In this document: in pieces, positions 1 through 59,887 of the stretch
How the letters are laid out: every line of letters starts with the position of its first letter
How positions within the stretch are numbered: position 1 is the first letter of the stretch
From: Candidatus Eiseniibacteriota bacterium
GTDB lineage: Bacteria > Eisenbacteria > RBG-16-71-46 > JABDJR01
DNA: 64,000 nucleotides
Assembly: GCA_963783375.1 (NCBI GenBank)
Contig: CAWANH010000029.1
Coordinates: forward strand, 1,408,001-1,472,000
Reading direction: 5' to 3'
Made by a program: the position numbers and the translations under genes
Notes under the pieces: model-generated
The model's database searches: none
What the model was told of the DNA's origin: nothing
What the model saw: the letters and a program-made list of their open reading frames with translations, nothing else

Positions 1-80
1 GAGGACGACCCGGGATCGCGCTGACAACCGAGCTGGCGGTCAGATGCCCACCGCAGCAGTGGGGTCATGAATAACCCGGG

Positions 81-1242
81 CTAGTGTCATGCGTCGGAAG
101 TACGTTTACAGAATCTAGCAATTGAGGCAAGGATCTCATCTGCAGATTTTGTCCACACGAGGGGCTTGGGGCTCTGGTTGGTAACCTCGATGTAGAGCTT
201 GATAGCCTGATTGAGCCGTTTGACGCTCCGATGAGTGGCTCGACGTAGCGCCTTGTCGGTCAGTGCGGCAAACCACCGCTCGACGAGGTTCATCCAGGAG
301 GAGTAGGTCGGCGTGAAGTGGAGGTGGAAGCGCGGGTTTCGAACGAGCCACCGCTTCACCGCGGGCACCTTGTGGGTCTGGTAGTTGTCGAGGATGAGGT
401 GAACGTCGAGGTCATCGGGGACCTCGGCGTCGATCGTTTTCAGGAAGCCGAGAAACTCTTTCGCTCGATGGTGTTTGTGAAGACTTCCAATGACTCGCCC
501 GGACTTCACGTCCAGCGCAGCGAACAGGGTCGTGGTGCCGTGGCGAACGTAGTCGTGCGTGTGCCGTTCGCACTGCCCTGGTCGTAACGGCAGGAGAGGC
601 TGTGTGCGGTCGAGAGCTTGGATCTGGGACTTCTCGTCCACGCACAGCACGAGCGCCCGCTCCGGTGGATCCATGTACAGCCCCACGACATCGCGTACCT
701 TGTCGATGAACAGGGGATCATTGGAAAGCTTGAAGGTATCGGCCCGGTGAGGCTGGAGCGCAAAGGTGTGCCAGATGCGTCGCACGGTGGTGGCGCTCAT
801 TCCCGAGACCTCCGCCATGGAGCGGGTACTCCAGTGGGTGGCTCCCCTGGGTGTCGAGTCGAGGGTTTTTGCGATGACGCGTTCAACCTCTGCATCGGAG
901 ACCTTGCGAGGAGCTCCGGGGCGAGGCTCATCGGTGAGCCCGTCGAGTCGGCGCTCAAGAAAGTTCGAGCGCCACTTGCCGACCGTGACCCGGGTGATGT
1001 GAAGGTGCTCGGCCACCGCGGAATTGGTCCACCCCTCGTCCGCGAGAAGCACGATGCGGGCACGGGTGGCAAGTCCTTGCGCCGTCTTGGGGCGGCGTGC
1101 CCAACCCTGGAGTACCTGACGTTCTTCGGTAGAAAGCCTGAGCGACTCGAGCGTGCGTCCACGTGACATGGCAACCCTCCTTTTGGAGGAGCATGCCGCA
1201 TGGGACTCCGGATGTATAGTTATTTCTGGCGCAAGACACTAG
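81..1242 (-). mobile_element. IS630-family insertion sequence
   Basis: Imperfect terminal inverted repeats CTAGTGTCATGCGTCGGAAGTA (81-102) and TATTTCTGGCGCAAGACACTAG (1221-1242), with CTAG at both ends, enclosing an IS630 transposase. Confidence 0.92.
87..1169 (-). CDS. IS630-family transposase (HTH + DDE)
   Basis: 360 aa; motifs VLCVDEKSQIQAL, HDYVRHGTTTLFAAL, LILDNY, HFTPTYSSWMNLVERWF. Confidence 0.96.
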   Translation of the reverse strand: MSRGRTLESLRLSTEERQVLQGWARRPKTAQGLATRARIVLLADEGWTNSAVAEHLHITRVTVGKWRSNFLERRLDGLTDEPRPGAPRKVSDAEVERVIAKTLDSTPRGATHWSTRSMAEVSGMSATTVRRIWHTFALQPHRADTFKLSNDPLFIDKVRDVVGLYMDPPERALVLCVDEKSQIQALDRTQPLLPLRPGQCERHTHDYVRHGTTTLFAALDVKSGRVIGSLHKHHRAKEFLGFLKTIDAEVPDDLDVHLILDNYQTHKVPAVKRWLVRNPRFHLHFTPTYSSWMNLVERWFAALTDKALRRATHRSVKRLNQAIKLYIEVTNQSPKPLVWTKSADEILASIARFCKRTSDA

Positions 1243-2793
1243 GAGCCCGTCCGAGTAACGATCAAGAGCGGGCTCCCTCTGGTCATGCGCCGCACGGGAT
1301 TTGTTAGCACCCGGGTGTTTTCGGGTTCGCCCGTTGATCGGGCCGCCTTGGATCGCGAGGGGAGCCGCCCCTCGGAGGCGGTTCCGCCCCCTTTTAGGCC
1401 GATCCGACCGCCTTGGCCCACTTCAGGAGGTTGTGGGCCGTGCAGATCAGGTCCCACTCCCCCCGAACCTTCGCGAAGCCCCGCAGCAGGAACTGGCGGA
1501 ACCCCCGGGCTTGCTTCATCTGTCCGAACACCGGCTCCACCGTTTGTTTCCTCAACCGGTACCGGCTCCGGTGTCCCCCCTTGCGTAGCCGCGTCCGCAT
1601 CGCCGCGGTCCGGGGCCCCGGGTTCTTCTCCTTCCCGTCGGTCGGCGACGCGCTCCCGTGCTTCTGTCGTCCCGTCGCCACGTACCCCCGGATGTGCCGC
1701 CGATCCAGTTCCTTCAGGTTCTCCTCCGAGCAGTACCCCGCGTCCGCCGACACCTCCTGCGCCTGCCGACCCGTATTCTCCTCGACTTGCGTCACCAGCG
1801 GAACCAGCTCGCCGGCATCCGACGCCGACTGCGTCACCCCCCGCGCCACGATCACCTGGCTCCCCGCATCCACCGCCGCCTGCGCGTTGTACCCCTGGAT
1901 GAACCCGTCCTTCGTCTTCAGGATCCGGCTCTCCGGATCCGTGAAGTTCCGCTGCGCCCGCGCCGGAGGTTCCCCCTTCGGCGTCTTCTGAGGGCGTCCC
2001 CGGCCCCGCTTCTCCGGCTTCTCGGCCGCCTCCACCCCCGCCTGCTCCCGCGCCTCCGCCTCCAACGCCGCCTTCGCCTCCCGGATCTTCGCCAGCCGCT
2101 TCTGCTTGTTGGCGACCCACTCCGGCAGCTCGTCACCCCGCCGGTCCGGCCCGTACTCCTCATCCTCCTCCGCGTCCACCCGCCCCGCCTCCTTCAGCCA
2201 CCGCTCGATCTCCCCCCGCAGCCGCCCCTCCTCCCCCTTCATCCGACCGTAGCTCATCGCCTTGTGCTTCGACGCGTTCGCCTTCACCTTCGTCCCGTCC
2301 AGCGACACGTGCCCCAGCTGCACCAACCCCGCTTCCCGGCACAACCGCAACACCTGCACGAACAGACCTCCCAGCCCCTCCAAATGCCGCTTCCGGAAGT
2401 CGCTGATCGTCCGAAAGTCCGGCTTCTGCAGCGCCGTCACCGCCATGAAGTCCACCCGCTCCTCGCACGCCCGCGCCAACCGCCGCGAGGAGTACACCCC
2501 CTGGCAGTACCCGTACAGCAGCAGCGCCGTCATCATCACCGGGTGGTACGGCGGATACCCCCGCGCCTCGGTGTACTCCTCCAGGATCGCGGACAGATCC
2601 AGGGTCTCCCGGACCGTATCCCGCACCAGATGCGCCAGATGGCCCGGCGGCACCAGTTCATGAACCGAGGGAGGCAGCAACCACACTTGATCGACGTCCC
2701 AGGGACGGAAGGTCTTGCTCATGACCTCCAAAAACCACACCCCCACCGCCCTGTCTAGATCAAATCCGGGGGATTACTCGGACGGGCTCCTAG
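1239..2793 (-). mobile_element. IS1182-family insertion sequence
   Basis: Perfect 20-bp inverted repeat including CTAG: CTAGGAGCCCGTCCGAGTAA (1239-1258) and TTACTCGGACGGGCTCCTAG (2774-2793). Confidence 0.92.
1394..2722 (-). CDS. IS1182-family transposase
   Basis: GYPPYHPVMM, SSRRLARACE, PDFRTISDFRKRH, LDGTKVKANASKHK, NFTDPESRIL, GYNAQAAVD, ADAGY, VEPVFGQMK. Start at MSKTFRPW. Confidence 0.95.
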   Translation of the reverse strand: MSKTFRPWDVDQVWLLPPSVHELVPPGHLAHLVRDTVRETLDLSAILEEYTEARGYPPYHPVMMTALLLYGYCQGVYSSRRLARACEERVDFMAVTALQKPDFRTISDFRKRHLEGLGGLFVQVLRLCREAGLVQLGHVSLDGTKVKANASKHKAMSYGRMKGEEGRLRGEIERWLKEAGRVDAEEDEEYGPDRRGDELPEWVANKQKRLAKIREAKAALEAEAREQAGVEAAEKPEKRGRGRPQKTPKGEPPARAQRNFTDPESRILKTKDGFIQGYNAQAAVDAGSQVIVARGVTQSASDAGELVPLVTQVEENTGRQAQEVSADAGYCSEENLKELDRRHIRGYVATGRQKHGSASPTDGKEKNPGPRTAAMRTRLRKGGHRSRYRLRKQTVEPVFGQMKQARGFRQFLLRGFAKVRGEWDLICTAHNLLKWAKAVGSA

Positions 2794-3149
2794 GAGGCTC
2801 CCAGTTCCTGGAGCCGCCGGCGGGCCGAGGCCTCGTCCGGGCGCTGATTCAGAATCGCCTCGACGTTCACCACCTGGAGAACGGCGCAGACCCGCTGGGA
2901 ACAGCCGTAGATGGCCAGCCCTCCCTTCTCCTGCTGCACCCGGGTCAGGAGGCGGATCAGGATCCCCACCCCCGCGCTGCTCAGAAACTCCACCTTGGAC
3001 ATGTCCAGGAGCATGGAGGTGGCCTTCTCCCCCAGCCTCTCCGAGATGAAATCCCAGAACTGGGTCGCCCCCAGGGCGTCGAGCCGGCCCACGGGGTGAC
3101 AGTGAAGAACGGTGCTCAGATCCTTGTCCGTCTCGCACGTGATGCGCAT
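2790..3149 (-). CDS. STAS-domain anti-sigma factor antagonist
   Basis: 119 aa; GRLDA...LLDMSKVEFLSSAGVGIL with the conserved phosphorylatable Ser region. Its stop codon is part of the IS target CTAG. Confidence 0.9.
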   Translation of the reverse strand: MRITCETDKDLSTVLHCHPVGRLDALGATQFWDFISERLGEKATSMLLDMSKVEFLSSAGVGILIRLLTRVQQEKGGLAIYGCSQRVCAVLQVVNVEAILNQRPDEASARRRLQELGAS

Positions 3150-3226
3150 GATTCCCCCTGTTGATCGTTTACCCGACCGATGCAGAAGCCCCGAGCCGAA
3201 GCGCCATCGGGAGCTTCCTCAGATTC

Positions 3227-3240
3227 TGTGGAAATCCACA
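3227..3240. promoter_or_regulatory. Candidate upstream activator sequence for a sigma54 activator
   Basis: Perfect palindrome TGTGGA-AA-TCCACA about 80 bp upstream of a -24/-12 element. Confidence 0.5.
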
Positions 3241-3316
3241 ACGGAGAGTCTTCCGGGATTTCCCCGCCGCTTCGCTAATCGTTTGTACCCAAGGTAGTAA
3301 TAAGATCATCCCAGAG

Positions 3317-3333
3317 TTGGAACGGACCGTGCA
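3317..3333 (+). promoter_or_regulatory. sigma54 (-24/-12) promoter of the octapeptide-repeat gene
   Basis: TTGGAACGGACCGTGCA gives GG-N10-GC, close to the consensus TGGCACG-N4-TTGCW. A sigma54 activator gene lies nearby. Confidence 0.7.
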
Positions 3334-3426
3334 AAGGTGAGGGGCCATGACGGGGCCCGGTGCGGAGCGAACCTTCTCCGGCCGGAGACGGAGGCGCAAA
3401 GACCACAATCCGAGGAGGTTCTTATC

Positions 3427-4047
3427 ATGGCTACCCGCTCGTTCAAGCGACCGCAGGCCCGACCGACCACCGCCACCACCGTGAAGATAGATGTCGCCGG
3501 CGACTTCATCGACGACATTAGCGGGTTGGCGCCCGCGGAGATCGCCAAGCTGAGTCCGAAGCAGATCGTGGCGCTCGCTCCGAAGCAGATCGCCGCCCTC
3601 GCCCCCAAGCAGGTGATGGCGCTCGCTCCGAAGCAGATCGCCGCCCTGGCGCCCAAGCAGGTGGTGGCGCTGGCCCCCAAGCAGATCGTGGCCCTGGCCC
3701 CGAAGCAGATCGCCGCCCTCGCCCCCAAGCAGGTGATGGCGCTGGCCCCGAAGCAGATCGTGGCCCTGGCTCCGAAGCAGATCGCCGCCCTCGCCCCCAA
3801 GCAGGTGCTGGCGCTGGCCCCGAAGCAGATCGTGGCCCTGGCTCCGAAGCAGATCGCCGCCCTCGCCCCCAAGCAGGTGCTGGCGCTGGCCCCGAAGCAG
3901 ATCGTGGCCATGGCCCCGAAGCAGATCGCCGCCCTGGCTCCGAAGCAGATCGCCGCCCTCGCCCCCAAGCAGGTGATGGCGCTCGCTCCGAAGCAGATCG
4001 CGGCCCTGGCGCCCAAGCAGATCGCCGCCCTCGCCCCGGTCGGCTAG
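3427..4047 (+). CDS. Octapeptide-repeat protein, 206 aa, (LAPKQ[IV][AVML]A)x20, function unknown
   Basis: Strong SD GAGGAGG before ATG 3427; in-frame 24-bp repeats with synonymous codon variation; terminator follows. Confidence 0.85.
   Translation: MATRSFKRPQARPTTATTVKIDVAGDFIDDISGLAPAEIAKLSPKQIVALAPKQIAALAPKQVMALAPKQIAALAPKQVVALAPKQIVALAPKQIAALAPKQVMALAPKQIVALAPKQIAALAPKQVLALAPKQIVALAPKQIAALAPKQVLALAPKQIVAMAPKQIAALAPKQIAALAPKQVMALAPKQIAALAPKQIAALAPVG
3550..4038 (+). repeat. 24-bp coding tandem repeat, 20 copies, with partial 72-bp higher-order period
   Basis: Unit consensus ct(c/g)gc(c/t)cc(c/g)aagcag(atc/gtg)nnngc(c/g). Confidence 0.95.
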
Positions 4048-4062
4048 AGCGCCCAAAGCCCA

Positions 4063-4105
4063 CGAAAGAGAGGGACCCCCTTCGGGAGGTCCCTCTCTTC
4101 GTTTC
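4063..4105. terminator. Intrinsic terminator between convergent genes
   Basis: GAGAGGGACCCCC-TTCG-GGAGGTCCCTCTC stem-loop followed by TTCGTTT. Confidence 0.8.
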
Positions 4106-4118
4106 GGGTTCATCCGTC

Positions 4119-5447
4119 TCAGTTCCATCGACCCCGTTCGAATGCTTCGGCCAGCCGGAGGAGATCCTCCTGGTAGGCTTGGGGCATCTTGGCGAACGCT
4201 TTCCGGAGAGCCAGGAACCGCTGGCCGGGGGTGCGGCCGCCCCCTCGCATGGCCCCGGTCGCCGCGGCCAGAAAACGCTCCAGCTTGGCCCGCACCCGAG
4301 GCTCCAACGCCCGCTCCCCCGCGACCTTCACCGCGGCGGCCTCCACGTTCCAGCGTTCCTGGGCCAGGGTACGGAACCCCTCCCCCTGGAAGTAATAGGT
4401 GAGCCCGCTCCGGGAGCAGACCGGGATCTGGCGCGGATCGTTCACCTCGCGCTGGCGGATCGTCAGCATGCGCTCGGCGAGGGCGATGTTGAAGTGGTAG
4501 CGGCGGAGCTGGGCCAGAACCCACCCCCCCACCTCGGCCGCCGGGGCCTCGGGGTCGCCGGCGGGGCTCTCCGGAGTCGGAGCGCCCGATCCGAGCATGG
4601 GTTCGGCGAGACGGTGCCGGGAGAAAACCGCCACCACGTGGCGATCCCGGATCTCCTCGCCCCCCCGGGCCTCGATGAGGAGCGCGCTCACGATGTTCTG
4701 AAGCTCCCGGACGTTGCCGGGAAAGGAATAGACCATGAGCCGCCGGAGCGCGTCGGCACGGACGACGGGCCGGGGACGTTTCCACTCCTGGGCGTGGCGA
4801 TCGAGGAAGTGGTCGATCAGGGGCGGAATGTCCTCGCGGTGCTCCCGAAGCGGGGGCAGGCGGATCGGAAAGACGTTCAGACGGTAGTAGAGGTCTTCGC
4901 GGAAGCGGCTCTGGCGCACTTCGCCCCGGAGGTCCCGGTTGGTGGCGGCCACCACCCGCGCTCCACTCCGGCGGGTTCCCTCGCCGCCCACCGGGGTGAA
5001 GGTGCCTTCCTGGAGGACGCGGAGCAGCTTCACCTGGGCGGAGAGCGTCATCTCGGCGATCTCGTCCAGGAACACCGTCCCTTCGCGGGCGCGCTCGAAG
5101 ACCCCGGCGTGGGCGCGGGAGGCGCCGGTGAAGGCGCCCGGCACGTGGCCGAAGAGTTCGCTCTCCAGGAGGGTCTCGGGGATGGCCCCGCAGTTCACCG
5201 CCTCGAACGGCGCGCGCCCGTCGCTTCCGTGCTCGTGGATGAGCCGGGCCACCAGTTCCTTGCCGGTTCCCGACTCCCCCTCGAGGAGGACCGGGGCCCG
5301 GGTCGTGGACACGCTCTCCAGATCGTCCAGCACGGCCATCATGGCCGCGCTCCGGCCCACGATGCGAACCCCTTTTCCCTTCCCGGCCCTTCGCCCGCCG
5401 CTCATCGGGTCCGCATCGGCGTGTTCGTATCCTCCCTCGGTGTGCAT
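4119..5447 (-). CDS. sigma54-dependent enhancer-binding protein lacking an N-terminal sensor domain
   Basis: Walker A GESGTGKEL, LESELFGH, GAFTGA, Walker B FLDEI, FREDLYYRLNV, FPGNVRELQN. Atypical C-terminus. Start may be ATG 5405. Confidence 0.92.
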   Translation of the reverse strand: MHTEGGYEHADADPMSGGRRAGKGKGVRIVGRSAAMMAVLDDLESVSTTRAPVLLEGESGTGKELVARLIHEHGSDGRAPFEAVNCGAIPETLLESELFGHVPGAFTGASRAHAGVFERAREGTVFLDEIAEMTLSAQVKLLRVLQEGTFTPVGGEGTRRSGARVVAATNRDLRGEVRQSRFREDLYYRLNVFPIRLPPLREHREDIPPLIDHFLDRHAQEWKRPRPVVRADALRRLMVYSFPGNVRELQNIVSALLIEARGGEEIRDRHVVAVFSRHRLAEPMLGSGAPTPESPAGDPEAPAAEVGGWVLAQLRRYHFNIALAERMLTIRQREVNDPRQIPVCSRSGLTYYFQGEGFRTLAQERWNVEAAAVKVAGERALEPRVRAKLERFLAAATGAMRGGGRTPGQRFLALRKAFAKMPQAYQEDLLRLAEAFERGRWN

Positions 5448-5474
5448 AGTCGCACTGTAGCACCACTGGAATGA

Positions 5475-5496
5475 GATTTGAATTACCTTTCAAATC
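5475..5496. promoter_or_regulatory. Palindromic operator candidate
   Basis: GATTTGAA-N6-TTCAAATC, AT-rich, just upstream of the activator gene in a divergent intergenic region. Confidence 0.55.
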
Positions 5497-5688
5497 ACCC
5501 CGACGGACCTGCCCAACCGGAGGGCGCAACGAAGCATCCCCCCCGCCGCTCTCGACTTACCCCGTAACCTCAGCCAGAATATGGGCCGCGGCGGCGGGGG
5601 GAAACGGGCTCCGCCGGCGGACCGGACGCGGTGCGGATCCCAGGACGGACCGGGGGTCGAACCCCGGCAATCAAAATGGAGGGGTGCG

Positions 5689-6717
5689 GTGCGGAAACCA
5701 GTGGTTCTCATCACCGGGGCGAACGGAGAGGTCGGGCACGGGCTCATCCAGGAGCTGGCCCACGACGGCCACGAGGACATCCTGGCCATGGACCTGGACC
5801 CGGTGGAGGAGTCGCTGGCCGGACTCTGCCGGGCCACCTTCGTGGGGAACATCCTCGACCGTCACCTGATGGAACGCATCGTGAGCGAGTACGAGGTGCG
5901 GGAGATCTACCATCTCGCCGCCCTCCTCTCCACCCGCGCGGAGTACACCCCCGAGACCGCCCACCAGGTGAACGTGGAGGGGACGATGGGGCTCCTCCAG
6001 CTCGCCATGGAGCAGTCGAGCTGGCGCGGCGAACCGGTGAAGTTCCTCTACCCCAGCTCCATCGCGGTCTACGGCCTCCCCGATCTCGCCACCAAGGAAC
6101 GGGCGGGGAAGGTCAAGGAATACGAGTGGACCAACCCCACCACCATGTACGGCTGCAACAAGCTCTACACCGAGAACCTGGGCCGCTACTTCGCCCAGCA
6201 CTACCGGCAGCTCGCGGCGGAGCTGGACAGCCGCCGGGTGGACTTCCGCTGCCTCCGGTATCCGGGGATCATCAGCGCGGTCACCATGCCCACCGGGGGC
6301 ACCAGCGACTTCGCCCCGGAGATGATCCACGCCGGGGCCAAGGGCGAGCCCTACGCCTGCTTCGTGCGCGAGGATTCCATCATCCCCTTCATGGCCATGC
6401 CGGACGCGATCAAGGCCATCCTGAGGCTGGCCGGGGCGGAGGTGGGACACCTGAAGCGCCGGATCTACAACGTCACCAGCTTCAGCCTGGCCGCCGGGGA
6501 GATCCGGGACCGGGTGGTGAAGGCCTTCCCCTCCGCCGACATCACCTTCGAACCGGATCTCAAGCGCCAGGCCATCGTGGACACCTGGCCCCTGGACGTG
6601 GACGACGGCCCCGCCCGCCGGGAGTGGGGCTGGCAGCCGGAGTACGACGCCGACCGCGCCTTCGACGAGTACCTGGTGCCGGAGATCCGGAAGCAGTATC
6701 ACGCGGCGAAGGGCTGA
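5689..6717 (+). CDS. NAD-dependent epimerase/dehydratase family, likely SDR-type L-threonine 3-dehydrogenase
   Basis: LITGANGEVG, YHLAALLS, PSSIAVYG, YGCNK, GGTSDFA. GTG start after GGAGG. Confidence 0.85.
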   Translation: MRKPVVLITGANGEVGHGLIQELAHDGHEDILAMDLDPVEESLAGLCRATFVGNILDRHLMERIVSEYEVREIYHLAALLSTRAEYTPETAHQVNVEGTMGLLQLAMEQSSWRGEPVKFLYPSSIAVYGLPDLATKERAGKVKEYEWTNPTTMYGCNKLYTENLGRYFAQHYRQLAAELDSRRVDFRCLRYPGIISAVTMPTGGTSDFAPEMIHAGAKGEPYACFVREDSIIPFMAMPDAIKAILRLAGAEVGHLKRRIYNVTSFSLAAGEIRDRVVKAFPSADITFEPDLKRQAIVDTWPLDVDDGPARREWGWQPEYDADRAFDEYLVPEIRKQYHAAKG

Positions 6718-18969: not shown

Positions 18970-19210
18970 TCCGGGCGGCGCGCACCCCCATGATCCTTGA
19001 CCTGGGTGGGTCCTCCACCGCCGATCGTTCCGAAAGGCGGGCGCGATGAGGCGGGCGGCGCGCACCCCCATGATCCTGGGTCCGGGCAGGTCCTCGACCG
19101 CCGAACGCTCCGAAAGGCGGGCGCGGTGAGGCGGGCGGCGCGCACCCCCATGATCCTTGGTCCTGGGCGGGTCCTCGACCGCCGAACGCTCCGAAAGGCG
19201 GGCGCGGTGA
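18966..19210 (+). repeat. Three tandem 80-81 bp repeats between modB and modC
   Basis: Unit ...CGGGCGGCGCGCACCCCCATGATCCT...CCGAAAGGCGGGCGCG(A/G)TGA starting at about 18966, 19046 and 19126. Confidence 0.9.
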
Positions 19211-20262: not shown

Positions 20263-20450
20263 GGAGCGCCCGGGAGCGCGTCTCACCCAGCTCATGCAGG
20301 ACGCCGCAATGACATCGCGCGTTTGCATTGCATGAGTTCGGCTGGGTTGGGAAGACGCCGTGGTGCCGGACCGCGCCCATCGCCACTCGGGCTCATCCGG
20401 AGTTCAGGAGCGCCCGGGAGCGCGTCTCACCCAGCTCATGCAGGACGCCG
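20262..20450. repeat. 45-bp exact direct repeat (20262-20306 and 20406-20450)
   Basis: AGGAGCGCCCGGGAGCGCGTCTCACCCAGCTCATGCAGGACGCCG occurs twice; the second copy is inside the 3' end of the HNH gene. Confidence 0.9.
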
Positions 20451-22081
20451 TGGCACCCGGAGCAGAGGGTTACGAGATTCTCCGCCCGGTTCGAGCCGCC
20501 CGCGGCCCGCGGGCGCACGTGGTGCACCTCCAGAAAGCGGCTCCGTCCGCAGCCGGGCATTCGGCAGCGATGGGCGTCCCGGACCAGAACCTCCCGCCGC
20601 ACCTTGGGGGGAATCGCGGCACGGTTCTTCTCCCCCGGTTGCCGGATTCGGGCATCGCAGAGGACGGCTTCCAGCTGGTGACGGCTCACCGCCCGCTCGC
20701 CGCGGCCGGTACCAACGAACCCGCGGCCGCAGTCCTCGCACCGGCGGACGAAGACCTGGTAGGGCGGGTGGGCCGGCGCCGTCTGCCGGGCTATCCCGGA
20801 CCCTTCCGCTTTCCCCGGGTATCTACTTGTGGCGCTTGTGATTGACTGAGGTTCAACCGGAGCCGCCGGCTGGGAACCACCGGCCGTTCCTGGCAACTGG
20901 GAATCACCGGCCGGGCCGGCTGGGTGGGAATCGCCGGCCGGGCCGGCTGGGTGGGAATCGCCGGCCATTGCGACCGAGTGGGAACCACGGGCCGGGGCGG
21001 GCGGTTGGGAACCACCGGCCCTCCCGGCCCGCGGTGCGCTTTCAATCCCCCGCCGCTCACTCAGGAGCGCCTCGAGCGCGGCGAGGAGGATCTCGTTCCG
21101 GCTGCCCTTCTCGCCGGTCTTCCTGAGGGCTTCGATCAGGGCCTCGTAGCGGGCGTACTCCAGGGGGCTCAACCGATAGCCCAGGTCCACCGGGACCTCC
21201 ACGGCGGGAAAATCCACATCGGCGTCGTCCACGGGGAAAGTCTCCAGGGCTTGGGTATGCGCCGCGAGGGTTCCCGCCGGGTGGGCCTCCGTGGCCGGGG
21301 AGTCGGTTTCCGAGACCGGATCGCCAGGGATCGCCACCGGCGCACCGTTAGACCGCACGTCGCTTGACGCCAGGGCATCCACCCGCACGCCATTCGACCG
21401 CACGTCGCTTGACGCCAGGGCATCCACCCGGACGCCATTCGACCGCACGTCGCTTGACGCCAGGGCATCCACCCGCACGCCATTCGACCGCACGTCGCTT
21501 GACGCCAGGGCATCCACCCGGACGCCGTTCGACCGCACGTCGCTTGATGCCAGGGCATCCACCCGCACGCCGTTTGAGGGTACGCCGCTCGACCTGGCGC
21601 CGTTCGACCGCACGCCATCCGCCCCCTGAACCAACGCGAGCCCGCCCTGGGCCGGATTCCGCCGGCGGGCGGCCCGGGCCCGCGACCGGGTGGCGCGGAT
21701 CTTCCGCTCCAGGGCGCGCCGACTCGAACCCCTGGCCTCCCGGAGCCAGGCCGCCTCGGTCTCGGGGGTGGCCACCCGGGCCACTTCGCGGGCCGTGGTC
21801 CAGGGGACGTCCCCCGACGCGACCGACTTCCTCAACCCCGGGAGGTGCTCCAGCGCCTCGGCAAGCTTCAGGAACTGGGCGGTCTTCCCGGATGAAAATC
21901 CCAACCGCTCCCCGGCGTACTGATGGACGGACGAGTATCCGAGTTCCCGGTAGAGCTTCCGGCGGACCATCTCTCCGAACCATAGGACGGAGCGCTCTTC
22001 GGCGGCCCGGTACTCCTGCAACGCGCCGCGGAGATGCGCATCCACCTCTTCTGCTGAGAGACCGGGGCGATATTCGGCCAT
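20393..22081 (-). CDS. HNH endonuclease with helical (DUF222-like) N-terminus and repeat-expanded linker
   Basis: C-terminal VRREVLVRDAHRCRMPGC...LEVHHV...GGSNRAENLVTLCSGCH; N-terminal LYRELGYSSVHQYA; SD GGAGG before ATG 22081. Confidence 0.88.
   Translation of the reverse strand: MAEYRPGLSAEEVDAHLRGALQEYRAAEERSVLWFGEMVRRKLYRELGYSSVHQYAGERLGFSSGKTAQFLKLAEALEHLPGLRKSVASGDVPWTTAREVARVATPETEAAWLREARGSSRRALERKIRATRSRARAARRRNPAQGGLALVQGADGVRSNGARSSGVPSNGVRVDALASSDVRSNGVRVDALASSDVRSNGVRVDALASSDVRSNGVRVDALASSDVRSNGVRVDALASSDVRSNGAPVAIPGDPVSETDSPATEAHPAGTLAAHTQALETFPVDDADVDFPAVEVPVDLGYRLSPLEYARYEALIEALRKTGEKGSRNEILLAALEALLSERRGIESAPRAGRAGGSQPPAPARGSHSVAMAGDSHPAGPAGDSHPAGPAGDSQLPGTAGGSQPAAPVEPQSITSATSRYPGKAEGSGIARQTAPAHPPYQVFVRRCEDCGRGFVGTGRGERAVSRHQLEAVLCDARIRQPGEKNRAAIPPKVRREVLVRDAHRCRMPGCGRSRFLEVHHVRPRAAGGSNRAENLVTLCSGCHGVLHELGETRSRALLNSG
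20865..21020 (-). repeat. Degenerate 27-bp coding repeats (GDSHPAGPA-like), about 6 copies
   Basis: TGGGAA recurs at 20871, 20898, 20925, 20952, 20979 and 21006. Confidence 0.8.
21351..21575 (-). repeat. 45-bp coding tandem repeat x5 (NGVRVDALASSDVRS)
   Basis: GACCGCACGTCGCTTGACGCCAGGGCATCCACCCG(C/G)ACGCC(A/G)TTC units; degenerate copies continue to about 21620. Confidence 0.92.
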
Positions 22082-22361
22082 GGGAACCTCCAGGAGCTTG
22101 TTTCTACGATTGCTATTCATTTGACTAGTATCGCGTGTGCGAGCACGAGGGTCAACTCTTTATTCTAGATTCGCTCATGAAATCGAAGCACTTGGCCGGC
22201 CCTGACCGCCGCGCCCATCACGAACCCCTTATTGCGAACATTGCTTCCCCGGGGAAGCACGGCCGGCGCGGCCGAGGGGACGGTGCCCCTTCGGATGAGG
22301 CGCGCCTCTGGAGGCGCGATGGGAGCGAAGCGGGACCCGTCGCGCCGAGAGAGCGAGCGCG

Positions 22362-46977: not shown

Positions 46978-47454
46978 ATGGAAGATCGATCCGTCTCGCT
47001 CCCCCCATCGGGTCGCCGCCGTTTCCTGGGATGGCTCCTGGGCACGTCCGGCGCGGCGTTGCTCTTCTCCGCGCTCTATCCCGTCCTCCGGTTCATCAGT
47101 CCTCCCCGCGTTCCCGAAGCGAGCACCAACCAGGTGGAGGCGGGTCCGGTCAACGACCCCGAGCTCATCCAGAAGGGGTACAAGATCATCCACTTCGGGA
47201 ACGACCCGGTCATCCTCATACGCGCCGCCGAGAATCACTTCGTGGCCCTCTCGGCCACCTGCACGCACCTGGATTGCATCGTGGAGTTTCAGAAGAACCG
47301 GGACCGGATCTACTGCAATTGCCACGGCGGGGTCTACGATCTCTCGGGACGCAACGTGGCCGGCCCTCCCCCCCGACCTCTCACTCCGTTCAAGGTCGAT
47401 GTCGTGGCCGCCCAGAGCGGCCAGCCCGCGACCATCATCGTTTCCCGGGCATAA
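46978..47454 (+). CDS. Rieske 2Fe-2S subunit
   Basis: Tat-like RRRFL plus TM helix; CTHLDC and CNCHGG. Confidence 0.95.
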   Translation: MEDRSVSLPPSGRRRFLGWLLGTSGAALLFSALYPVLRFISPPRVPEASTNQVEAGPVNDPELIQKGYKIIHFGNDPVILIRAAENHFVALSATCTHLDCIVEFQKNRDRIYCNCHGGVYDLSGRNVAGPPPRPLTPFKVDVVAAQSGQPATIIVSRA

Positions 47455-47457
47455 AAC

Positions 47458-48615
47458 ATGGCGCGCGAATCCCTCTTCCGATGGCTTGACCGCCGCCTCC
47501 ACGTCTCCTTCCTCGTCGACGCGGGCTCCCACAAGACCGTCCCCCTCCATCGCTACACCGTCTTCTACTACCTGGGTGGCATGACGCTGTTCTTCTTCAT
47601 CGTCCAGGCGGTGACCGGCGTGCTCCTCATGCTCTACTATCGCCCTTCGGCCGGGGAGGCGTTCGAGTCGGTCGAGTTCATCATGACCACCGTTCCCTTC
47701 GGCTGGCTCCTGCGGTCCATCCATTCCTGGTCGGCCAATCTTCTCGTCTTCTTCGCCTTCCTGCACATGGCCACCGTCTTCATCATGAAGGGCTACCGCC
47801 CGCCGCGGGAACTCACCTGGATCACCGGTTGCGTGGTCTTCTTCCTGGTCATGGCCTTCGGGTTCTCCGGCTATCTCCTTCCCTGGAACCAACTTGCATT
47901 CTTCGCGACCAAGGTGGGCACCGACATCGCGGGATCGGTTCCGGTGGTCGGGGAGTGGCTGCTGCGGTTCCTCCGCGGCGGCGATCGCGTGACCGGAGGA
48001 ACCCTCTCGCGGTTCTACGGCTGGCACGTGGCCATCCTGCCGTCGATCACCCTGCTCCTCCTGGGGCTCCATCTTCTCCTCGTCCAGATCCACGGCATGA
48101 GCGAGCCCGAGGCGGTCCGGCGGCGCGAGGTGAAGTCTCCCGGCATGAAGTTCTTTCCCCATTTCGCCCTCCGCGATCTCTTCGGGTGGACGGTGGCCCT
48201 GGGCGTGCTGGCCGCCCTGGCCGCGTTGTTCCCGTGGGAGCTCGGCGAGAAGGCCAACCCCTTCGCCCCGGCCTACCCGAACATCCGGCCCGAGTGGTAC
48301 TTCATGTTCATGTTCCAGACCCTGAAGCTCGTCCCGGGGGGCGAGATCGCGGGGATCGAGTACGAGGCGTTTCCCATTCTCCTGTTCGGGCTGGGGGGGG
48401 TGGTCCTGCTCCTTCTCCCCCTCTTCGACACCGGCGCCAAGCGGGTACGAACCCTCTTCACGAACGCTCTCGGCGGAGCGGCCCTGGCCTACGCGGTGGG
48501 GATGACGGTGTGGGGCTATCGATCCGCGGTGCCTCTGCTCCTGGTGGCCGCGGTCGCGGCGCTCCTCGTTTTGACGGCGTGGCTCACGCGCGGCACGCGG
48601 AGGTCACCATCGTGA
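47458..48615 (+). CDS. Cytochrome b (unsplit; b6-like and subunit IV-like parts fused)
   Basis: YLGG, RSIHSW, GYLLPWNQ, RFYGWH, PEWY. Confidence 0.95.
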   Translation: MARESLFRWLDRRLHVSFLVDAGSHKTVPLHRYTVFYYLGGMTLFFFIVQAVTGVLLMLYYRPSAGEAFESVEFIMTTVPFGWLLRSIHSWSANLLVFFAFLHMATVFIMKGYRPPRELTWITGCVVFFLVMAFGFSGYLLPWNQLAFFATKVGTDIAGSVPVVGEWLLRFLRGGDRVTGGTLSRFYGWHVAILPSITLLLLGLHLLLVQIHGMSEPEAVRRREVKSPGMKFFPHFALRDLFGWTVALGVLAALAALFPWELGEKANPFAPAYPNIRPEWYFMFMFQTLKLVPGGEIAGIEYEAFPILLFGLGGVVLLLLPLFDTGAKRVRTLFTNALGGAALAYAVGMTVWGYRSAVPLLLVAAVAALLVLTAWLTRGTRRSPS

Positions 48616-50348
48616 TCGGGCTCTTGAACCTCATGCTCCCGCTTCTTCTCGCCGCGGATCCGGCGGCGATCGCGCCTTCGCAATCGCCACAGGCTCCGCA
48701 GACCCCGCAGACCTCCTGCACCACGTGCCACATGAGCCCCGACCTGTTCGACGCCGAGAGCCTGAAGGAGTGGGAGGGGATCGACCGGGACGTGCACCAT
48801 CAGGCCGGGCTCTCCTGCCAGGACTGCCACGGCGGCAACCCGGATCCCGCGTTGAGCGAGGATGCCGAAGCGGCCATGGACCCGAACTTCACCGCCAACC
48901 CCTTCCGGGGGGCCCCGCTCCGGACGGCGATCCCCGCGTTTTGCGGCCGGTGCCATTCCGATCCCGTCTACATGAAGCGTTTCCGTCCCGACCCGCGGAT
49001 CGACCAGGAGCAGGAGTACTGGACGAGCCGCCACGGCAAGGCCTTGCGCACCGGGGATATCAACGTGGCCACCTGCATCGACTGCCACGGCACCCACCGG
49101 ATCCTCCCCCCGGACAACCCCGAGGCCCCGGTGTACCCGACCCACGTGGCCGAAACCTGCGGCCGGTGCCACTCGGATCCCGAGCACATGAAGGGGTATC
49201 GGCTGGACGACGGGCGGCCCCTCCCGGTGGACCAGTACGCCCGTTGGTCACGGAGCGTTCACGCCAACGCCCTCCTGGTGAAGGGGGATCTCACCGCCCC
49301 CACCTGCAACGACTGCCACGGCAACCACGGCGCGACTCCTCCGGGGGTCAAGGAGGTAGCGTTGGTCTGCGGCCAGTGCCACGGCCGCGAAGCGAACCTC
49401 TTCCGGGCGAGCCCCAAGCAGGTGGGATTCCAGAACCACAACGATTTCCTGGCCGAGGCCGGGGACGAGGGTTGCGCCTCGTGTCACGACGCCGACCAAC
49501 CGCCGGGCACGATGACGGGGATTCAGCGCTTCTACGGGTGCGTGGTTTGCCACGAGAACCACGGCGTCGTCCGCCCGACCATCGCCCTCCTGAGCCCGCT
49601 CCCCGACACTCCCTGCGCGCTCTGCCACGAGGGTCCCGAGCCGGCGGGCACTACGGGGGAGCCGGAGAAGGTCAAGCAGCACTTCCGCGAGGTGCGGGAT
49701 GCCCTGCTGGCCAAGACGGTGGGGATGGCCCCCGAAGACCGGTTCGATTGGCTGGTCGACCAGGCGCTGGTCCTCGATACCCACACGCTCCCCGGCGGGG
49801 AAGGCGAGGCTCCCGCCCTCCGGCCCGAGTTTGCGCGCCTCTTCGAGCGGTTCCGTATCGGCAAGACCCACTACACCTTCGTGGATCCGGAAACCGGGAC
49901 CGAGGTCAAAGCCCGCGTTCGCCGGTGCGGCGATTGCCATGCCGCGCCCCCGGATTCGGAGCCTCCGGAAGGCGGCTTCGCCGTCTCCCAGGAGTATCTG
50001 GACGACATGCATGCGCTTACCTTGCAGATCGCCCGGGCCGAGCGGAGCTTCCTCGCCGCCCAGCGCGGCGGCGTCGAGGTCCGGGAGGCGCTTACCTCGC
50101 TCGATAGCGCGGTGGACAGCCAAATCCAGCTCGAGGTGCTCGTCCACGGATTCTCCACCAGCCAGGATGGAGCCTTCGTCGCCAAGCAGAAGGAGGGCAT
50201 GGCCCACGCCCAGGCGGCCGCGGTCACCGCTCAGCGCGCGCTCGAGGAGCTGACGAACCGCCGTCGCGGTCTCAGCATCTCCCTCATCTTCATCCTCATC
50301 TTCCTCACCGCCCTCGGCCTCAAGATCCGAGATCTCTCCCGACCCTGA
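48612..50348 (+). CDS. Membrane-anchored 11-heme cytochrome c
   Basis: 11 CxxCH motifs counted; signal peptide; C-terminal helical stalk and TM helix. GTG start overlaps the cytochrome b stop. Confidence 0.9.
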   Translation: MIGLLNLMLPLLLAADPAAIAPSQSPQAPQTPQTSCTTCHMSPDLFDAESLKEWEGIDRDVHHQAGLSCQDCHGGNPDPALSEDAEAAMDPNFTANPFRGAPLRTAIPAFCGRCHSDPVYMKRFRPDPRIDQEQEYWTSRHGKALRTGDINVATCIDCHGTHRILPPDNPEAPVYPTHVAETCGRCHSDPEHMKGYRLDDGRPLPVDQYARWSRSVHANALLVKGDLTAPTCNDCHGNHGATPPGVKEVALVCGQCHGREANLFRASPKQVGFQNHNDFLAEAGDEGCASCHDADQPPGTMTGIQRFYGCVVCHENHGVVRPTIALLSPLPDTPCALCHEGPEPAGTTGEPEKVKQHFREVRDALLAKTVGMAPEDRFDWLVDQALVLDTHTLPGGEGEAPALRPEFARLFERFRIGKTHYTFVDPETGTEVKARVRRCGDCHAAPPDSEPPEGGFAVSQEYLDDMHALTLQIARAERSFLAAQRGGVEVREALTSLDSAVDSQIQLEVLVHGFSTSQDGAFVAKQKEGMAHAQAAAVTAQRALEELTNRRRGLSISLIFILIFLTALGLKIRDLSRP

Positions 50349-51096
50349 TCCAACCGGCGGGCGGGAGGATCGTCGGAGACGGACGGCGGCCATCATGGGC
50401 ACCGACCGTCCGCCAGGGACCCACCCCTGCGCTTTCCTATCCCCGCTTCGACCTGCGGGGGGGTGGACTTCCATCTCCAGGTCCCCGCCCATACCGGGCG
50501 CGACGCGGTCCGGCGGGACACGGGACGGGATTCCCGGGAAGGGACACGAGCCCGGCCCGTTCCTGAAGTCGTGTCGTGAGGGGAGCCGATGACCGTCGGA
50601 CCGGGCACCGGAGCGTCCGACGACGCAGGCGTACCCGGTGCGGTACGTCGAGGAGGCGGACCGCGAGGACGCCCGAGCCGCCGATCAGATGCCCGCCGGA
50701 CCAGCCGGTTGGTGAATGGGCCGGACCGGAAGTGAACCCCGGGAGATTCCTGCGCCTACCCGGGCACCGCCGGTGGATCCGGATTGCCGGCTTCACCTTG
50801 AGACACCCCACTGTGCCGACAACGATGGACTCAGGTGGAAGCTTCAGACCCATGTGGACACGGGTCGGCGAGGCGCGCCCCTTCAAGTCTCGCCGCCGGA
50901 GACGGCAGTCTCTCGATGGAATAAACGGGCGGGCGCCCATCCGGACGCCCGCCCGACTTCCAGAGACCTATCGTCGCAATGGAACCCTACCGGCTCGGCT
51001 CGGTCCGGTCGACCGTGGACCGAGCCTCCCTCCCTCCGGCGACCGCCGGGCCCCGTTCAGGAACGGCCGCCCGGGCCCCGAGGGGAGGTTGGGAGC

Positions 51097-52074
51097 CTAG
51101 TGCACCGCGGCGGCGCTTGCCCCCATCCTCGAGAGACCCTCCTCGAGCAACGCCTTCGCGTAGTCGGGGTTGTGAACGCCCATGCTCTTGTCCTCGTGCA
51201 TGACGTAGAGCCAGTTGTAGAGCGCAATCCCCTGATCCTCGGGGGCCTCCGAGACGGTCGGATGCCCGTCCTCCGAGTTCTCGTTGATGAGGCCGGCGTT
51301 CACCAGCAACGCTCCGAGCTGGCTCCCCAGGTCCTCGATCTCGGTCTGCACGCCCTTGTAGTCGAAGCTCGTGGCCTCGGGGTGACAGCGCTGGCAGGTG
51401 GCCAGGGCGGGCTCGAAGTGGTGGTCATTGGTATCACCCATGTGACAATCGACGCAGGTGTTCGTCACCGCTCCGTAGTGCGGGCTCACGGTCCCCGTTA
51501 CACCGGCGCCGGCGACGCCGAGCAGCATGGCGCTCTGCGGACCGTGGTGCGGGCCCCAGTGGGAGCTGATACCGGTGATCACGCCGTTTTCCGCCACCGG
51601 GAAATCGCGACGCGGCTGGTGACAGTTGGCGCACAGGTTCCCCTCCCCGCCGTCGAAGGTCGCACCTTCGATGGAGGCGAGGTGAACCGGTTGCGCGGTT
51701 CTCAGCGAGAAGTCCGCCATCGAGTAGGTCTCGTGGATCATGTGACAGGCGCGGCAGTCCTGGCGCGTCGGGTCCGGCTGGCCCATCTCCACCTCGGTCG
51801 GGTTCTCCCCCGCCGCCACCATCTCCTGGAAGCCGTTCCCGGAGTGGCACCCGGCGCAACTTGCGCTGCTCGACCGCACGTAGGCCGTTCCGGTGCCGTG
51901 CACGGACTCCGCCCACTCGGTTTGCTTCCCGGTGATGATGCTGCTGGCGTTGTGGCAATCCGCGCAGGACAGCGGCTTGGTCGACTCGACGCGGGTGATG
52001 GTGCGATCACACGACTGGGCGCCGATCAGCACCGCGACTGCCCCGAGTGCTAGGATGGTTTTTGCGACGGACAT
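51097..52074 (-). CDS. Hexaheme cytochrome c lipoprotein
   Basis: Lipobox-like GAQSC; 6 CxxCH; C-terminal helices with GVHNPDYA. Confidence 0.88.
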   Translation of the reverse strand: MSVAKTILALGAVAVLIGAQSCDRTITRVESTKPLSCADCHNASSIITGKQTEWAESVHGTGTAYVRSSSASCAGCHSGNGFQEMVAAGENPTEVEMGQPDPTRQDCRACHMIHETYSMADFSLRTAQPVHLASIEGATFDGGEGNLCANCHQPRRDFPVAENGVITGISSHWGPHHGPQSAMLLGVAGAGVTGTVSPHYGAVTNTCVDCHMGDTNDHHFEPALATCQRCHPEATSFDYKGVQTEIEDLGSQLGALLVNAGLINENSEDGHPTVSEAPEDQGIALYNWLYVMHEDKSMGVHNPDYAKALLEEGLSRMGASAAAVH

Positions 52075-52107
52075 CTAGGCCTCCTTCTTTTCCTTTTCTG
52101 CTTGCGC

Positions 52108-53676
52108 TTACTTCCCGTGCAGGTCGTAAGCGACGTTGAACCAGACCACATTGGCGGTGTAGTAGCGATCCAGGAGAATGTAATCGTCGTAGTTGTACAC
52201 GTTGTACTTGGCCTCGAGGTGAATGTCGTCCTTGACGGCGTATGCCCCCTCGAAGAAGAGAATCGACTTCTCGATATCCAGGTCGCCGCCCACGTTCAGG
52301 AAGGTGAGACCGCTGGAAAGACGCAGATCCTTGATCCTCTCCAGGTCCACCCGGCCGGTGACGCTGTTGTTCCAGGCCCGGAACCTCCCGGTGCGATCCT
52401 GGAACTCGTCGTTGGAATACTCGTAAGTCCCCGACAACCCGCCCCATCCGGCATAGGCGTACCGGGCGTATGCGGAGGCGACCTGTCCCGTGGCGCTGAC
52501 GTCGATATCGGGATAGTCCCGGTCACGAATACGGAATCCCGAACCGATCGAAAGACCCTTGACCGGGTTCACCTCCAGGTCGCCACGGAAATGGGCGGTC
52601 TCGATGTCCTTGAGAAGGGTCAGCTCCTCCTGGTCCTTCTTCAGCCTGCCCGCGTACCGGAACCTGGCGGTGAGGAGCTTGTTGTACCGGAAGGTCGTCG
52701 CCGCCCGCCAGCTGCTGTAGTACGTGAGGGAGACCTCGTCGTCGTTGGTCTCGTATCCGTAGCCGAGGGAGACGTCGCCGTACCGGTAGAAAACGGTGGC
52801 GTCGATGTCGTTGGTGAAGCGATCCGTCTTGAGATCGGTGGTCTGGTCGTCGATCCGCTGGGCTTCGAATCGGTACTCGAGGCGCAGGGGATCGACCGGA
52901 TCGATCAGGCCGGTGTACTGGAAATTGGCCAGGGTGTAGTCCAGGTCCCCGGTGGAGAGGTTGCTGACCCCGTAGGCCGCCCGCAAGAGGTGTGTCCACC
53001 TGTCGTAGAACATGCAGGGAGTCGCGATCCGGGCCGAGACGACCTGGCCGGTGCGGTCGGCGTCCGAGTTCCGCTGGTCGCTGAAGTCGGAGACGCGATA
53101 GTCGACGGCCAGAACCCTTCGGTTCTTCCGGGCCTCCGCCGACACACGGCCGGAGAGGAGGCCGCTGTCGTACCGGAGCCCCAGGGCGTCGGCGGTTCCG
53201 GGTGGATAGGATAGACGGTTCCCGGTCTGGGTGATGTAGCCCAGGGATCCCTCGAGTTTGATCCAGCGCTCCGGAGTGAATCGCGCGTTCAGGTTCCAGT
53301 TCCGCCGGTCGGACGTCGTGTTGCGGCCGGGGTCGAACACCTGGCGGTTTTGGGTGAGCGAAGCCGACAGCTTGAATCTGCCCGGTCGCCGGTAGAGCAA
53401 CTTCCCTTGACGACTGTCGAAGTTGATCTCCTTGAGGTCGATCATCAGGTAGTTGTCGGGATTCGGCGTTCCGGTCAGGCGGAGCTGGGTGATGGAGAAC
53501 CCGTCGTGGATGTTGTAGGTCTCCTGGACCGCGGACCGGTCCCCCACCTCATCGAGGATGACCCCGCCCAGTTTCACGGTCCCGGTCCACGCCCCCGCCC
53601 GAAGCGGAGCCGCCCCCAGGACGAAGATGAGCATGGCCATGAGTGTCGCTCGGGTCTTCATTCGCATTCGCACCAT
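52108..53676 (-). CDS. Outer-membrane beta-barrel (MtrB/PioB-like position)
   Basis: Signal peptide, alternating beta-strand pattern, aromatic C-terminal strand; lies between two multiheme genes. Confidence 0.8.
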   Translation of the reverse strand: MVRMRMKTRATLMAMLIFVLGAAPLRAGAWTGTVKLGGVILDEVGDRSAVQETYNIHDGFSITQLRLTGTPNPDNYLMIDLKEINFDSRQGKLLYRRPGRFKLSASLTQNRQVFDPGRNTTSDRRNWNLNARFTPERWIKLEGSLGYITQTGNRLSYPPGTADALGLRYDSGLLSGRVSAEARKNRRVLAVDYRVSDFSDQRNSDADRTGQVVSARIATPCMFYDRWTHLLRAAYGVSNLSTGDLDYTLANFQYTGLIDPVDPLRLEYRFEAQRIDDQTTDLKTDRFTNDIDATVFYRYGDVSLGYGYETNDDEVSLTYYSSWRAATTFRYNKLLTARFRYAGRLKKDQEELTLLKDIETAHFRGDLEVNPVKGLSIGSGFRIRDRDYPDIDVSATGQVASAYARYAYAGWGGLSGTYEYSNDEFQDRTGRFRAWNNSVTGRVDLERIKDLRLSSGLTFLNVGGDLDIEKSILFFEGAYAVKDDIHLEAKYNVYNYDDYILLDRYYTANVVWFNVAYDLHGK

Positions 53677-53680
53677 CCTA

Positions 53681-54640: not shown

Positions 54641-54911
54641 TGGGCCCCCTCCGAAGAAAGACCGCCTATGTAGCTCTTTCAGGGCGAAACGTACCAACAC
54701 CTTAACGGAGCCGTCAAAGTGCTTTTTCCGATTTGACTTATTCTTTTATCGTGTTCCGGAGGGAGATCTCCCCATTCAAACCTGGAATATGAGGTATCAA
54801 GAGAAAACAGATAATTCTTGTCATAAAATCTTTCCTCCGGAACCCGCCCGGGCGCGTTCCCCCGGGGGAAGGCCGCCCTGGAAAGCGGCCTCCCCCCGAG
54901 CCGTCGTACGC

Positions 54912-58076: not shown

Positions 58077-58077
58077 G

Positions 58078-58629
58078 TTACTTCTCCTCGGCGCTGGGAG
58101 GTTCGTAGCCATGAACTTCCTTGAGCTGGAACGTGAAGAACGATTTCGGCGAGAAGTGAGGCGGGAAGTTCAGGAACGCCCACGAGCTGTCGACCGCCGC
58201 CCCCTCCTTGAACACCAGCACGTGGACGGCCGGGTTCTTCATTTCCATGGAGAAGTTCACCGGCTTGCCGCCGGCGATCTTGAAGTCGGGCATGAAGCCG
58301 CTCACCCGGGCGGTGTAGGGAGTGTCCCCCAGGTACATCGTCTCGCCGAGCTTCACGGTGTGGGACTCGCTCCAGCTCGGGTACATCCGGTTTCCCACCT
58401 CGAGGCCGAAGCTCAAGGTGGTGTCGGCCGCGATGGCCGCGGTGTCGGCTCCGGTTTCGGGCCCCGTGGTCCTGGGAAGCGAGCGAAGGATGGCGGCGGC
58501 GCCCGAGTCCGGCGACGCCTCCTCGGGGTGGACGGCCGCCGAATCCGCCGGCGCGTCCTGGGATCGGGCCCCGTCCGCCCAGGCCCAGACCAGGAGTCCC
58601 AACCCCACCGCGATCAAGATCCGTCTCAT
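58078..58629 (-). CDS. Exported hypothetical protein (possibly ResB-like beta domain)
   Basis: Signal peptide; FMPDFKI...S.EMKNPAV...WAFLNFP. Confidence 0.65.
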   Translation of the reverse strand: MRRILIAVGLGLLVWAWADGARSQDAPADSAAVHPEEASPDSGAAAILRSLPRTTGPETGADTAAIAADTTLSFGLEVGNRMYPSWSESHTVKLGETMYLGDTPYTARVSGFMPDFKIAGGKPVNFSMEMKNPAVHVLVFKEGAAVDSSWAFLNFPPHFSPKSFFTFQLKEVHGYEPPSAEEK

Positions 58630-59869: not shown

Positions 59870-59887
59870 GAAGTTCTCGCTTCCCGT

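Follow-up and report, generated by a model that had tools for sequence, protein, structure and literature searches.

We describe here a conserved six-part gene unit that extends into a 64,000-nucleotide stretch of the genome of a Candidatus Eiseniibacteriota bacterium (GenBank assembly GCA_963783375.1, contig CAWANH010000029.1, positions 1,408,001 to 1,472,000 of the forward strand), referred to below as the window. The unit is marked by its genes and their motifs, by gene order, by co-occurrence and joint loss across genomes, and by a conserved operator. A repeat-protein gene in the window is rather probably the cargo of this unit, predicted from the sequence to be switched on through sigma54 and to have its product clipped and exported by a trio of proteins encoded just upstream. 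The module is real, conserved and uncharacterised, and its trio is of a known but unexplained kind. An earlier reading of the window (the original prediction) had instead proposed a self-contained switch formed by the repeat gene, a sensor-less sigma54 activator and a STAS gene. The layout that it gave, with the activator convergent with the repeat gene and the STAS gene divergent, is correct, as is its placing of a GG-N10-GC promoter at 3317-3333. The principal features are listed here, in window coordinates except for the first.

Contig C29 of the source genome (G000), 1402839-1407962, plus strand, outside the window: trio operon, encoding a membrane fusion protein (MFP), a fusion of a PqqD-like or RiPP recognition element (RRE) domain with an M50 protease and an MFP domain (PqqD/RRE-M50-MFP), and a GAF-GAF-transmembrane-MFP protein
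2790..3149, minus strand: gene for a single-domain STAS protein of 119 aa (PF01740), a clade-specific accessory
3215..3233, no strand: predicted enhancer (upstream activating sequence), the dyad TTCCTCA-GATTC-TGTGGAA, with its centre 93 bp ahead of the promoter 17-mer
3227..3240, no strand: palindrome TGTGGAAATCCACA with 5-bp arms, comprising the right half of the dyad and a third half-site, TCCACA, at 3235-3240
3276..3285, minus strand: IHF-core-like CAA-N4-TTA, TAATCGTTTG, weak alone
3317..3333, plus strand: sigma54 -24/-12 promoter TTGGAACGGACCGTGCA, with GG at 3319-20 and GC at 3331-32
3427..4047, plus strand: repeat gene, the predicted cargo, 206 aa (PF20080, ALTTAQ repeat), with ribosome binding site GAGGAGGT at 3412-3419
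4119..5447, minus strand: gene for the sensor-less sigma54 activator, 442 aa, with GAFTGA at 5121-5138
4122..4559, minus strand: family-defining, all-helical C-terminal domain of the activator, about 146 aa, predicted to bind DNA as a Fis-like helix-turn-helix (HTH) with an insert

To define the unit we used the C-terminal domain of the activator as a family marker. The marker is present in 8 of 61 related genomes, and the three of these with a short activator are the same three that have the repeat. Alignment scans with this domain gave 31 genome and 80 metagenome loci (80 of 87 retained), some of them redundant, and trio genes adjoin the activator in 27 of the 111, many of which lie on short contigs. 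A sigma54-like site followed by an open reading frame (ORF) is present at 26 of the 27 trio loci (L087 is doubtful), compared with 29 of the remaining 75, a group that includes several cargo loci truncated ahead of the trio. The recurrent order is the trio, then a sigma54 promoter with an enhancer of the form TCCGCA-N5-TGCGGA, and then a small gene whose product has a basic head and a variable tail. Across 206 genomes of the phylum the activator is found in 41 and the M50 protease in 39, 29 of which have a core type (E<1e-120, plus the truncated G203) and the other ten a second type. The activator accompanies the core type in 29 of 29 genomes and the second type in one of ten, and the core type occurs in none of the 165 genomes that lack the activator.

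Close relatives provide natural deletions of the unit. The whole cassette is missing from between the same flanking genes in G001, which belongs to the same genus, and G003, also near kin, has lost all of it except the STAS gene. Genome G006 has the order MFP, PqqD-M50-MFP, GAF-GAF-MFP, STAS (reverse), repeat gene, one inserted gene and activator (reverse); a 226-aa signal-peptide protein (L025:10045-10725, minus strand) is lodged between its repeat gene and activator. The repeat family occurs in 4 of the 206 genomes. The STAS, repeat and activator genes are found together in G006, G078/L035 and L064, and in part in G002, which is the synteny that the original prediction called for; the conserved partners, however, are the upstream MFP, PqqD-M50-MFP and GAF-MFP genes, and the proposal of a self-contained three-gene switch is not supported.

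The second type of RRE-M50-MFP (L028:12750-13300, minus strand; L160-L163) is a single gene flanked by one to four short peptides whose leader is LE-x-RIAP and whose tails are rich in Gly and Asn. Two further genes, one of them FemAB/GNAT-like by eye, accompany it in G029 and G016, and the activator is absent from nine of the ten genomes that have this type only.

The trio operon ends with the stop codon of the GAF-GAF-MFP gene 39 bp ahead of the window, and its three products are 282 (MFP), 686 (PqqD/RRE-M50-MFP) and 723 aa (GAF-GAF-TM-MFP) in length. The source-genome protease contains HEMGH and NYNPLMKYDG, and the corresponding HExxH and NxNPxxKxDG motifs are unchanged in all nine proteases aligned, leaving the zinc ligands intact. 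Assignment of its PqqD-like N-terminal domain as an RRE is based on weak Pfam and PDB matches and an Atlas score of 0.95. There are 15 OEP-domain (TolC-type) matches in the genome away from the locus. A secondary SecA was not found in this genome, which is 97% complete and has one full SecA and a 48-position fragment at a contig end; SecA2 was rejected as an energiser here. The first GAF domain of the GAF-MFP at L027:10792-12963 contains a long Asp/Glu-rich insertion (residues ~125-210), which varies in length across clades, has a net charge of -7 to -25 per 40 residues, and could pair with the basic heads of the cargos.

The repeat gene contains an array of 20.1 copies of a 24-bp unit, encoding about 20 octapeptides of the form xALAPKQ(I/V), and its product scores 98.1 bits against PF20080 (cut-off 26.4). 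The head is basic, beginning MATRSFKRP, and has no hydrophobic signal region. A homologue search with the protein, a low-complexity query, returned no matches. The best PDB match is the designed alpha-helical screw HeliScrew4 (9ZEM), with an E value of 6.7e-26 that is inflated by the repeat. The two share an 8-residue repeat with a proline where the helix starts and apolar residues at core positions, a likeness seen at the level of sequence, although the window protein is natural, Lys-rich and has a 40-residue head. The available part of the HeliScrew4 study reports a single natural example of the fold in the PDB (10.64898/2025.12.04.691947). We presume that the repeat body in the window clade probably folds as a cationic alpha-helical-screw rod; the match suggests such a rod, as a surface or matrix protein, in preference to a series of short cores.

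Cargo ORFs across the family encode 37-252 aa. Heads were drawn from 24 promoters, one of which gave no ORF; the first 20 residues are basic in 20 of the 23 cargos, a signal-peptide h-region is present in none, and seven have tandem-repeat tails with 6-21 residues per unit. The repeat protein is one of many interchangeable cargo tails, and its suggested role as a feedback partner of the activator finds no support. Three Gemmatimonadota-labelled loci (L059, L051 and L105) contain the activator, a cargo with acidic ELEEKEAPR repeats, a divergently oriented trio with an additional 347-aa gene, and three STAS-like genes.

The absence of a signal peptide, together with the Lys/Ala-rich composition of many cargos, which we take to resemble that of histone H1-type proteins, might also be expected of a basic protein that stays in the cytoplasm, either histone-like or a ribosome-binding stress protein under sigma54, with the trio merely a long-standing neighbour. 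This seems quite improbable, because when the genes are unlinked, in family f17, the cargo stays with the trio and not with the activator, trio and cargo are lost together, and the second RRE-M50-MFP type has leader-bearing peptides (LE-x-RIAP) of its own.

The promoter and its upstream region support a link between the repeat gene and the activator. The genome has about 25 strong matches to sigma54 activators, and adjacency alone therefore did not link this one to the promoter. Of the elements expected of a sigma54 promoter, the locus has the GG-N10-GC sequence and a dyad within 80-150 bp upstream, and the genome has a single copy of rpoN. The promoter is one of five genome matches to a strict pattern that was written after the site was known, and its counterpart in G006 is TTGGAACAGCCTATGCA. 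A motif search on 25 upstream regions yielded TCCGCA half-sites, and the family consensus of the dyad is TCCGCA-N5-TGCGGA, to which 12 of 29 homologous promoters conform at 10 or more of 12 positions (mononucleotide shuffles: mean 0.2, maximum 3). The 14-bp palindrome singled out by the original prediction is where it was said to be, and TGTGG-N4-CCACA occurs at two places in the genome; as the whole operator it was dropped, since the conserved dyad lies at 3215-3233. Its register, TGCGGA-N2-TCCGCA, is likewise found in 12 of 29 promoters at 10 or more of 12 matches, and because both registers are enriched we interpret the element as an array of alternating half-sites.

A matrix trained on 16 loci, leaving out the window and G006, ranks window positions 3213-3235 first among 4,733,283 genome positions. 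In 11 further trio loci, six from family f17, which was absent from the training set, and five from f10, kin of training loci, the best site exceeds the 95th percentile of 1,650 random windows in every case. These sites lie at -102/-105 or at -115 to -117, compared with -93/-94 in the window clade, such that the spacings differ by steps of one helical turn. In the f17 loci the activator sits on another contig. With an operator that is conserved, helix-phased and first in the genome, the view of the repeat gene as a dedicated target of the activator has gained support. The second-ranked operator-like site in the genome (G000:C29:511964, 19.9 bits) lies roughly 0.9 kb away from a different sigma54 activator gene (C29 510553-511053).

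A partial IHF-like site had also been noted between enhancer and promoter. Its core is present, and CAA-N4-TTA is enriched across the family (6 of 29 promoters, 0.32 expected); the full IHF consensus, which has two mismatches in the window (shuffle p 0.5), is no better than chance and was dropped. The genome has two HU/IHF genes.

The activators of the f17-type clade (L038, L039, L043, L077-L084, L097 and L100) are convergent with downstream genes for small proteins that have a Sec signal and an amphipathic, Pro-tailed body. Some of these genes follow sigma54-like promoters whose upstream DNA has no TCCGCA dyad by eye.

The activator has the intact AAA+ domain of a sigma54 enhancer-binding protein, with Walker A (GESGTGKE), GAFTGA, Walker B (FLDEI) and the arginine-finger region, as well as ATNRDL, FREDLYYRL and PGNVRELQN. 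As had been proposed, it lacks a sensor domain: about 28 residues precede the AAA+ domain, and the start is conserved in G002, G006 and P0005. A miscalled start or broken gene was ruled out by these conserved starts and by the seven-member clade (support 100/99) that the short activators form amid GAF-bearing relatives, in a tree of 24 of the 67 rows with which a quick tree of all rows agrees. Most family activators carry an N-terminal domain of about 200 residues that is weakly GAF-like (four of six tested, all below cut-off). Because the short forms cluster inside a GAF-bearing family, the loss of the sensor is derived and clade-specific in these sequences; a possible second loss, in P0013, gave p 0.40 in an approximately unbiased (AU) test. 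Loss of the ancestral GAF domain makes it probable that control now comes from the activator's own expression or from a partner acting in trans.

Sensor-less sigma54 activators of the PspF and HrpR/S type are regulated by a partner in trans or by their own expression. The window activator resembles them in that its GAFTGA-bearing AAA+ domain is intact and is not preceded by a regulatory domain, but it scores 231.9 against the PspF cut-off of 443.55. It differs from both PspF and HrpR/S in having arisen by loss of GAF within a GAF-bearing family, in its unusual 146-aa C-terminal domain, and in that no PspA- or HrpV-like partner was identified for it. The C-terminal 146 residues have no Pfam match. 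They are modelled as seven helices (pLDDT 92) with a Fis-like pattern by eye and an Atlas lead to HTH_8 of 0.82, and Foldseek found nothing at E<=0.001.

The ancestral N-terminal domain of the activator aligns with the GAF domains of the GAF-MFP protein (hhalign 96.9% to GAF1 and 72% to GAF2), and this raises the question of whether the trio signals rather than secretes. It would then be a trans-envelope sensor with regulated intramembrane proteolysis, in which the protease cuts either a partner or the peptide induced through sigma54, and the cleavage product acts back on the circuit via the GAF domains of adaptor and activator. The homology would fit such a circuit, as would the lack of a pump at the locus and the recurrence of STAS genes around the module, three in L059 and L051, and the available part of a 2015 study suggests a sensory role for GAF-HlyD (PMC4452313). 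We nonetheless regard it as rather unlikely. The similarity between the GAF domains may be generic, the presence of three MFP domains speaks for an outer-membrane channel, repeat tails that are long (42-252 aa) and hypervariable suit a secreted product better than a signal, and the window clade has the trio without a GAF domain on its activator.

The STAS protein has the fold and phospho-acceptor serine of the SpoIIAA/RsbV type, with Ser58 invariant in six of six aligned sequences and a TIGR00377 score of 52.9, just below the cut-off of 53.45. No kinase/anti-sigma or phosphatase partner was found for it at the locus; the rest of the genome was not searched. STAS genes recur near other versions of the module. 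The original prediction had the STAS or the repeat protein controlling the sensor-less activator in trans, and it is true that the activator is genuinely sensor-less, that the STAS gene occupies the same place in every ALTTAQ locus with flanking DNA (the window, G006, L035 and L064, and partly G002), and that the STAS gene has the enhancer 66-91 bp ahead of its start, where cross-control would be possible. The distribution of the genes makes such a switch very unlikely, since most loci of the family lack this STAS, its orthologs occur in 4 of the 206 genomes (E<=1e-12; the G002 copy is cut by a contig end) compared with 41 for the activator, and it is the trio, not STAS, that tracks the activator. 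L035 pairs the same STAS with a GAF-bearing activator, and G003 retains STAS after loss of activator, repeat gene and trio. The STAS protein therefore neither replaces the sensor nor depends on the module; a role for it as substitute sensor was rejected, these gene distributions argue against it as an obligatory partner, and the proposed feedback by it is unsupported. A modulating role is possible, and the GAF-GAF adaptor is, speculatively, the better candidate for a partner in trans.

Taken as a secretion unit, the locus would work as follows. The dedicated AAA+ activator would bind TCCGCA-N5-TGCGGA and open the sigma54 promoter, giving abundant cargo; the PqqD/RRE domain of the neighbouring M50 protease would grip the basic cargo head, which the protease would clip in the membrane; and the MFP assembly, with a borrowed TolC-type channel encoded elsewhere, would pass the repeat body out of the cell. 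Binding of the activator to DNA is very probable and recognition of the cargo likely, both on the strength of the sequences. Cleavage and export of the cargo, for which the case is one of analogy, we favour by a little; they are proposed because, in the parts of the two reports available, RRE-site-2-protease fusions remove daptide leaders (10.1101/2023.03.08.531785) and, for the M50 protease EpeP, cleavage and export of the product by the one enzyme have been proposed (PMC10885120).

Several observations weigh against such a unit. No ABC transporter, RND or SecA2 energiser was found at the locus, and there is no ABC gene beside the trio in G000 or G006, so that neither shows the classical type I pairing of ABC transporter and MFP. 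Cargo heads are conserved only inside clades, and the Gemmatimonadota-labelled cargos are acidic. A core-type M50 was not detected in 12 of the 41 activator genomes, many of them incomplete; the score defining the core type was set after a gap in the scores had been seen, loci linked to the activator supplied the sequences for the M50 profile, and related genomes are not independent. The Fisher value for this association is accordingly given no weight, and the deletions in near kin say more. The promoters for motif work were picked by hand from sigma54-like sites, and the motif is missing, by eye, from six sigma54-like promoters that serve Sec-signal genes next to f17 activators and that were left out of the motif statistics. 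Finally, in a fold search of the activator C-terminal domain against 48,161 chains the best Z was 4.2, with weak matches of HTH type at Z 3.4-3.6, an outcome that does not in itself establish a new fold.

Two known systems come close to the trio. An HlyD / Peptidase_M50-HlyD / GAF-HlyD module without an ABC transporter was described computationally in 2015, its function unknown, and M50 was proposed as an inner-membrane pore; in one expression data set most of its genes were little or not expressed (PMC4452313, as far as the available text goes). It shares with our locus the same three HlyD-domain proteins in one locus and the lack of an ABC transporter, but has a secondary SecA_DEAD that is absent here, and the phyla differ; the available part of that account includes no PqqD/RRE domain, small cargo gene, sigma54 promoter, dedicated activator or STAS (PMC4452313). 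The daptide proteins MpaP/DapP, to judge from the accessible portion of their description (10.1101/2023.03.08.531785), likewise have an RRE fused to an intramembrane site-2 protease near short ORFs with a conserved N-terminus. However, the window protease scores 173 against the NF041824 cut-off of 300, the trio has an extra MFP domain on the protease and two more MFP genes, and the locus lacks the ELExMEAP leader, C-terminal Thr and modifying enzymes, with cargos in the family reaching 252 aa with repeats. We found no published description of the cargo, promoter, operator or activator family in a literature search that took in few subscription journals and no supplements, and one relevant preprint on LEPRxLL-type leaders makes no mention of M50 or GAF.

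The trio and the STAS gene are separated in the window by two insertion sequences (IS), which we take from their Pfam domains to be of the IS630 and IS1182 families and which lie outside the module.

1..80, no strand: spacer between the trio operon and the window
85..1238, minus strand: IS630-type element in CTAG, with a DDE_3 transposase at 87-1169
1243..2789, minus strand: IS1182-type element (DUF772 and DDE_Tnp_1_6), with 16-bp inverted repeats at 1243-1258 and 2774-2789
4062..4102, plus strand: hairpin, a predicted intrinsic terminator between the convergent genes (z -5.1; 0/200 shuffles)

Copies of CTAG at 81-84 and 1239-1242 flank the IS630-type element, and the two different elements are stacked in a single CTAG (81-2793; 2,709 bp combined). 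This target doubles as the STAS stop codon, and both insertions leave every gene unbroken. G002 keeps the empty, IS-free site, and the trio is contiguous with the rest of the unit in relatives. No sigma70-type promoter was found in 2790-5750. Elsewhere in the window, tandem arrays at 18972-19210 (80 bp x 3), 20857-21020 (27 bp x 6) and 21351-21571 (45 bp x 4.9) lie near molybdate-ABC-like genes and within a 575-aa ORF (20393-22120), and, by eye, the translations in 47059-63845 include clustered CxxCH-containing ORFs that look like multiheme cytochromes, together with a gene resembling cytochrome b and some that may encode beta-barrels.

With this locus, a trio that has been unexplained gains a candidate substrate, a predicted operator and, in the window clade, a sensor-less activator. 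It adds a distinct family of one-component activators, an operator prediction that has been tested computationally, and natural deletion controls. The repeat proteins may be a natural family with the alpha-helical-screw fold, and the activators have a C-terminal domain that lacks annotation. The sensor-less activator offers a possible way of turning on the cargo in a laboratory host, and the role of the trio is testable with six genes. A broader and more tentative suggestion from these sequences, one we would put forward with some reserve, is a pump-less, leader-directed secretion in which RRE-M50-MFP and two adaptors would recognise and clip a basic N-terminal head and export hypervariable repeat bodies, in the window a natural alpha-helical-screw rod, under a dedicated activator family, which may have a previously undescribed DNA-binding domain and a predicted operator. 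If true, this would be a new class of secretion bridging RiPP maturation and type I export.

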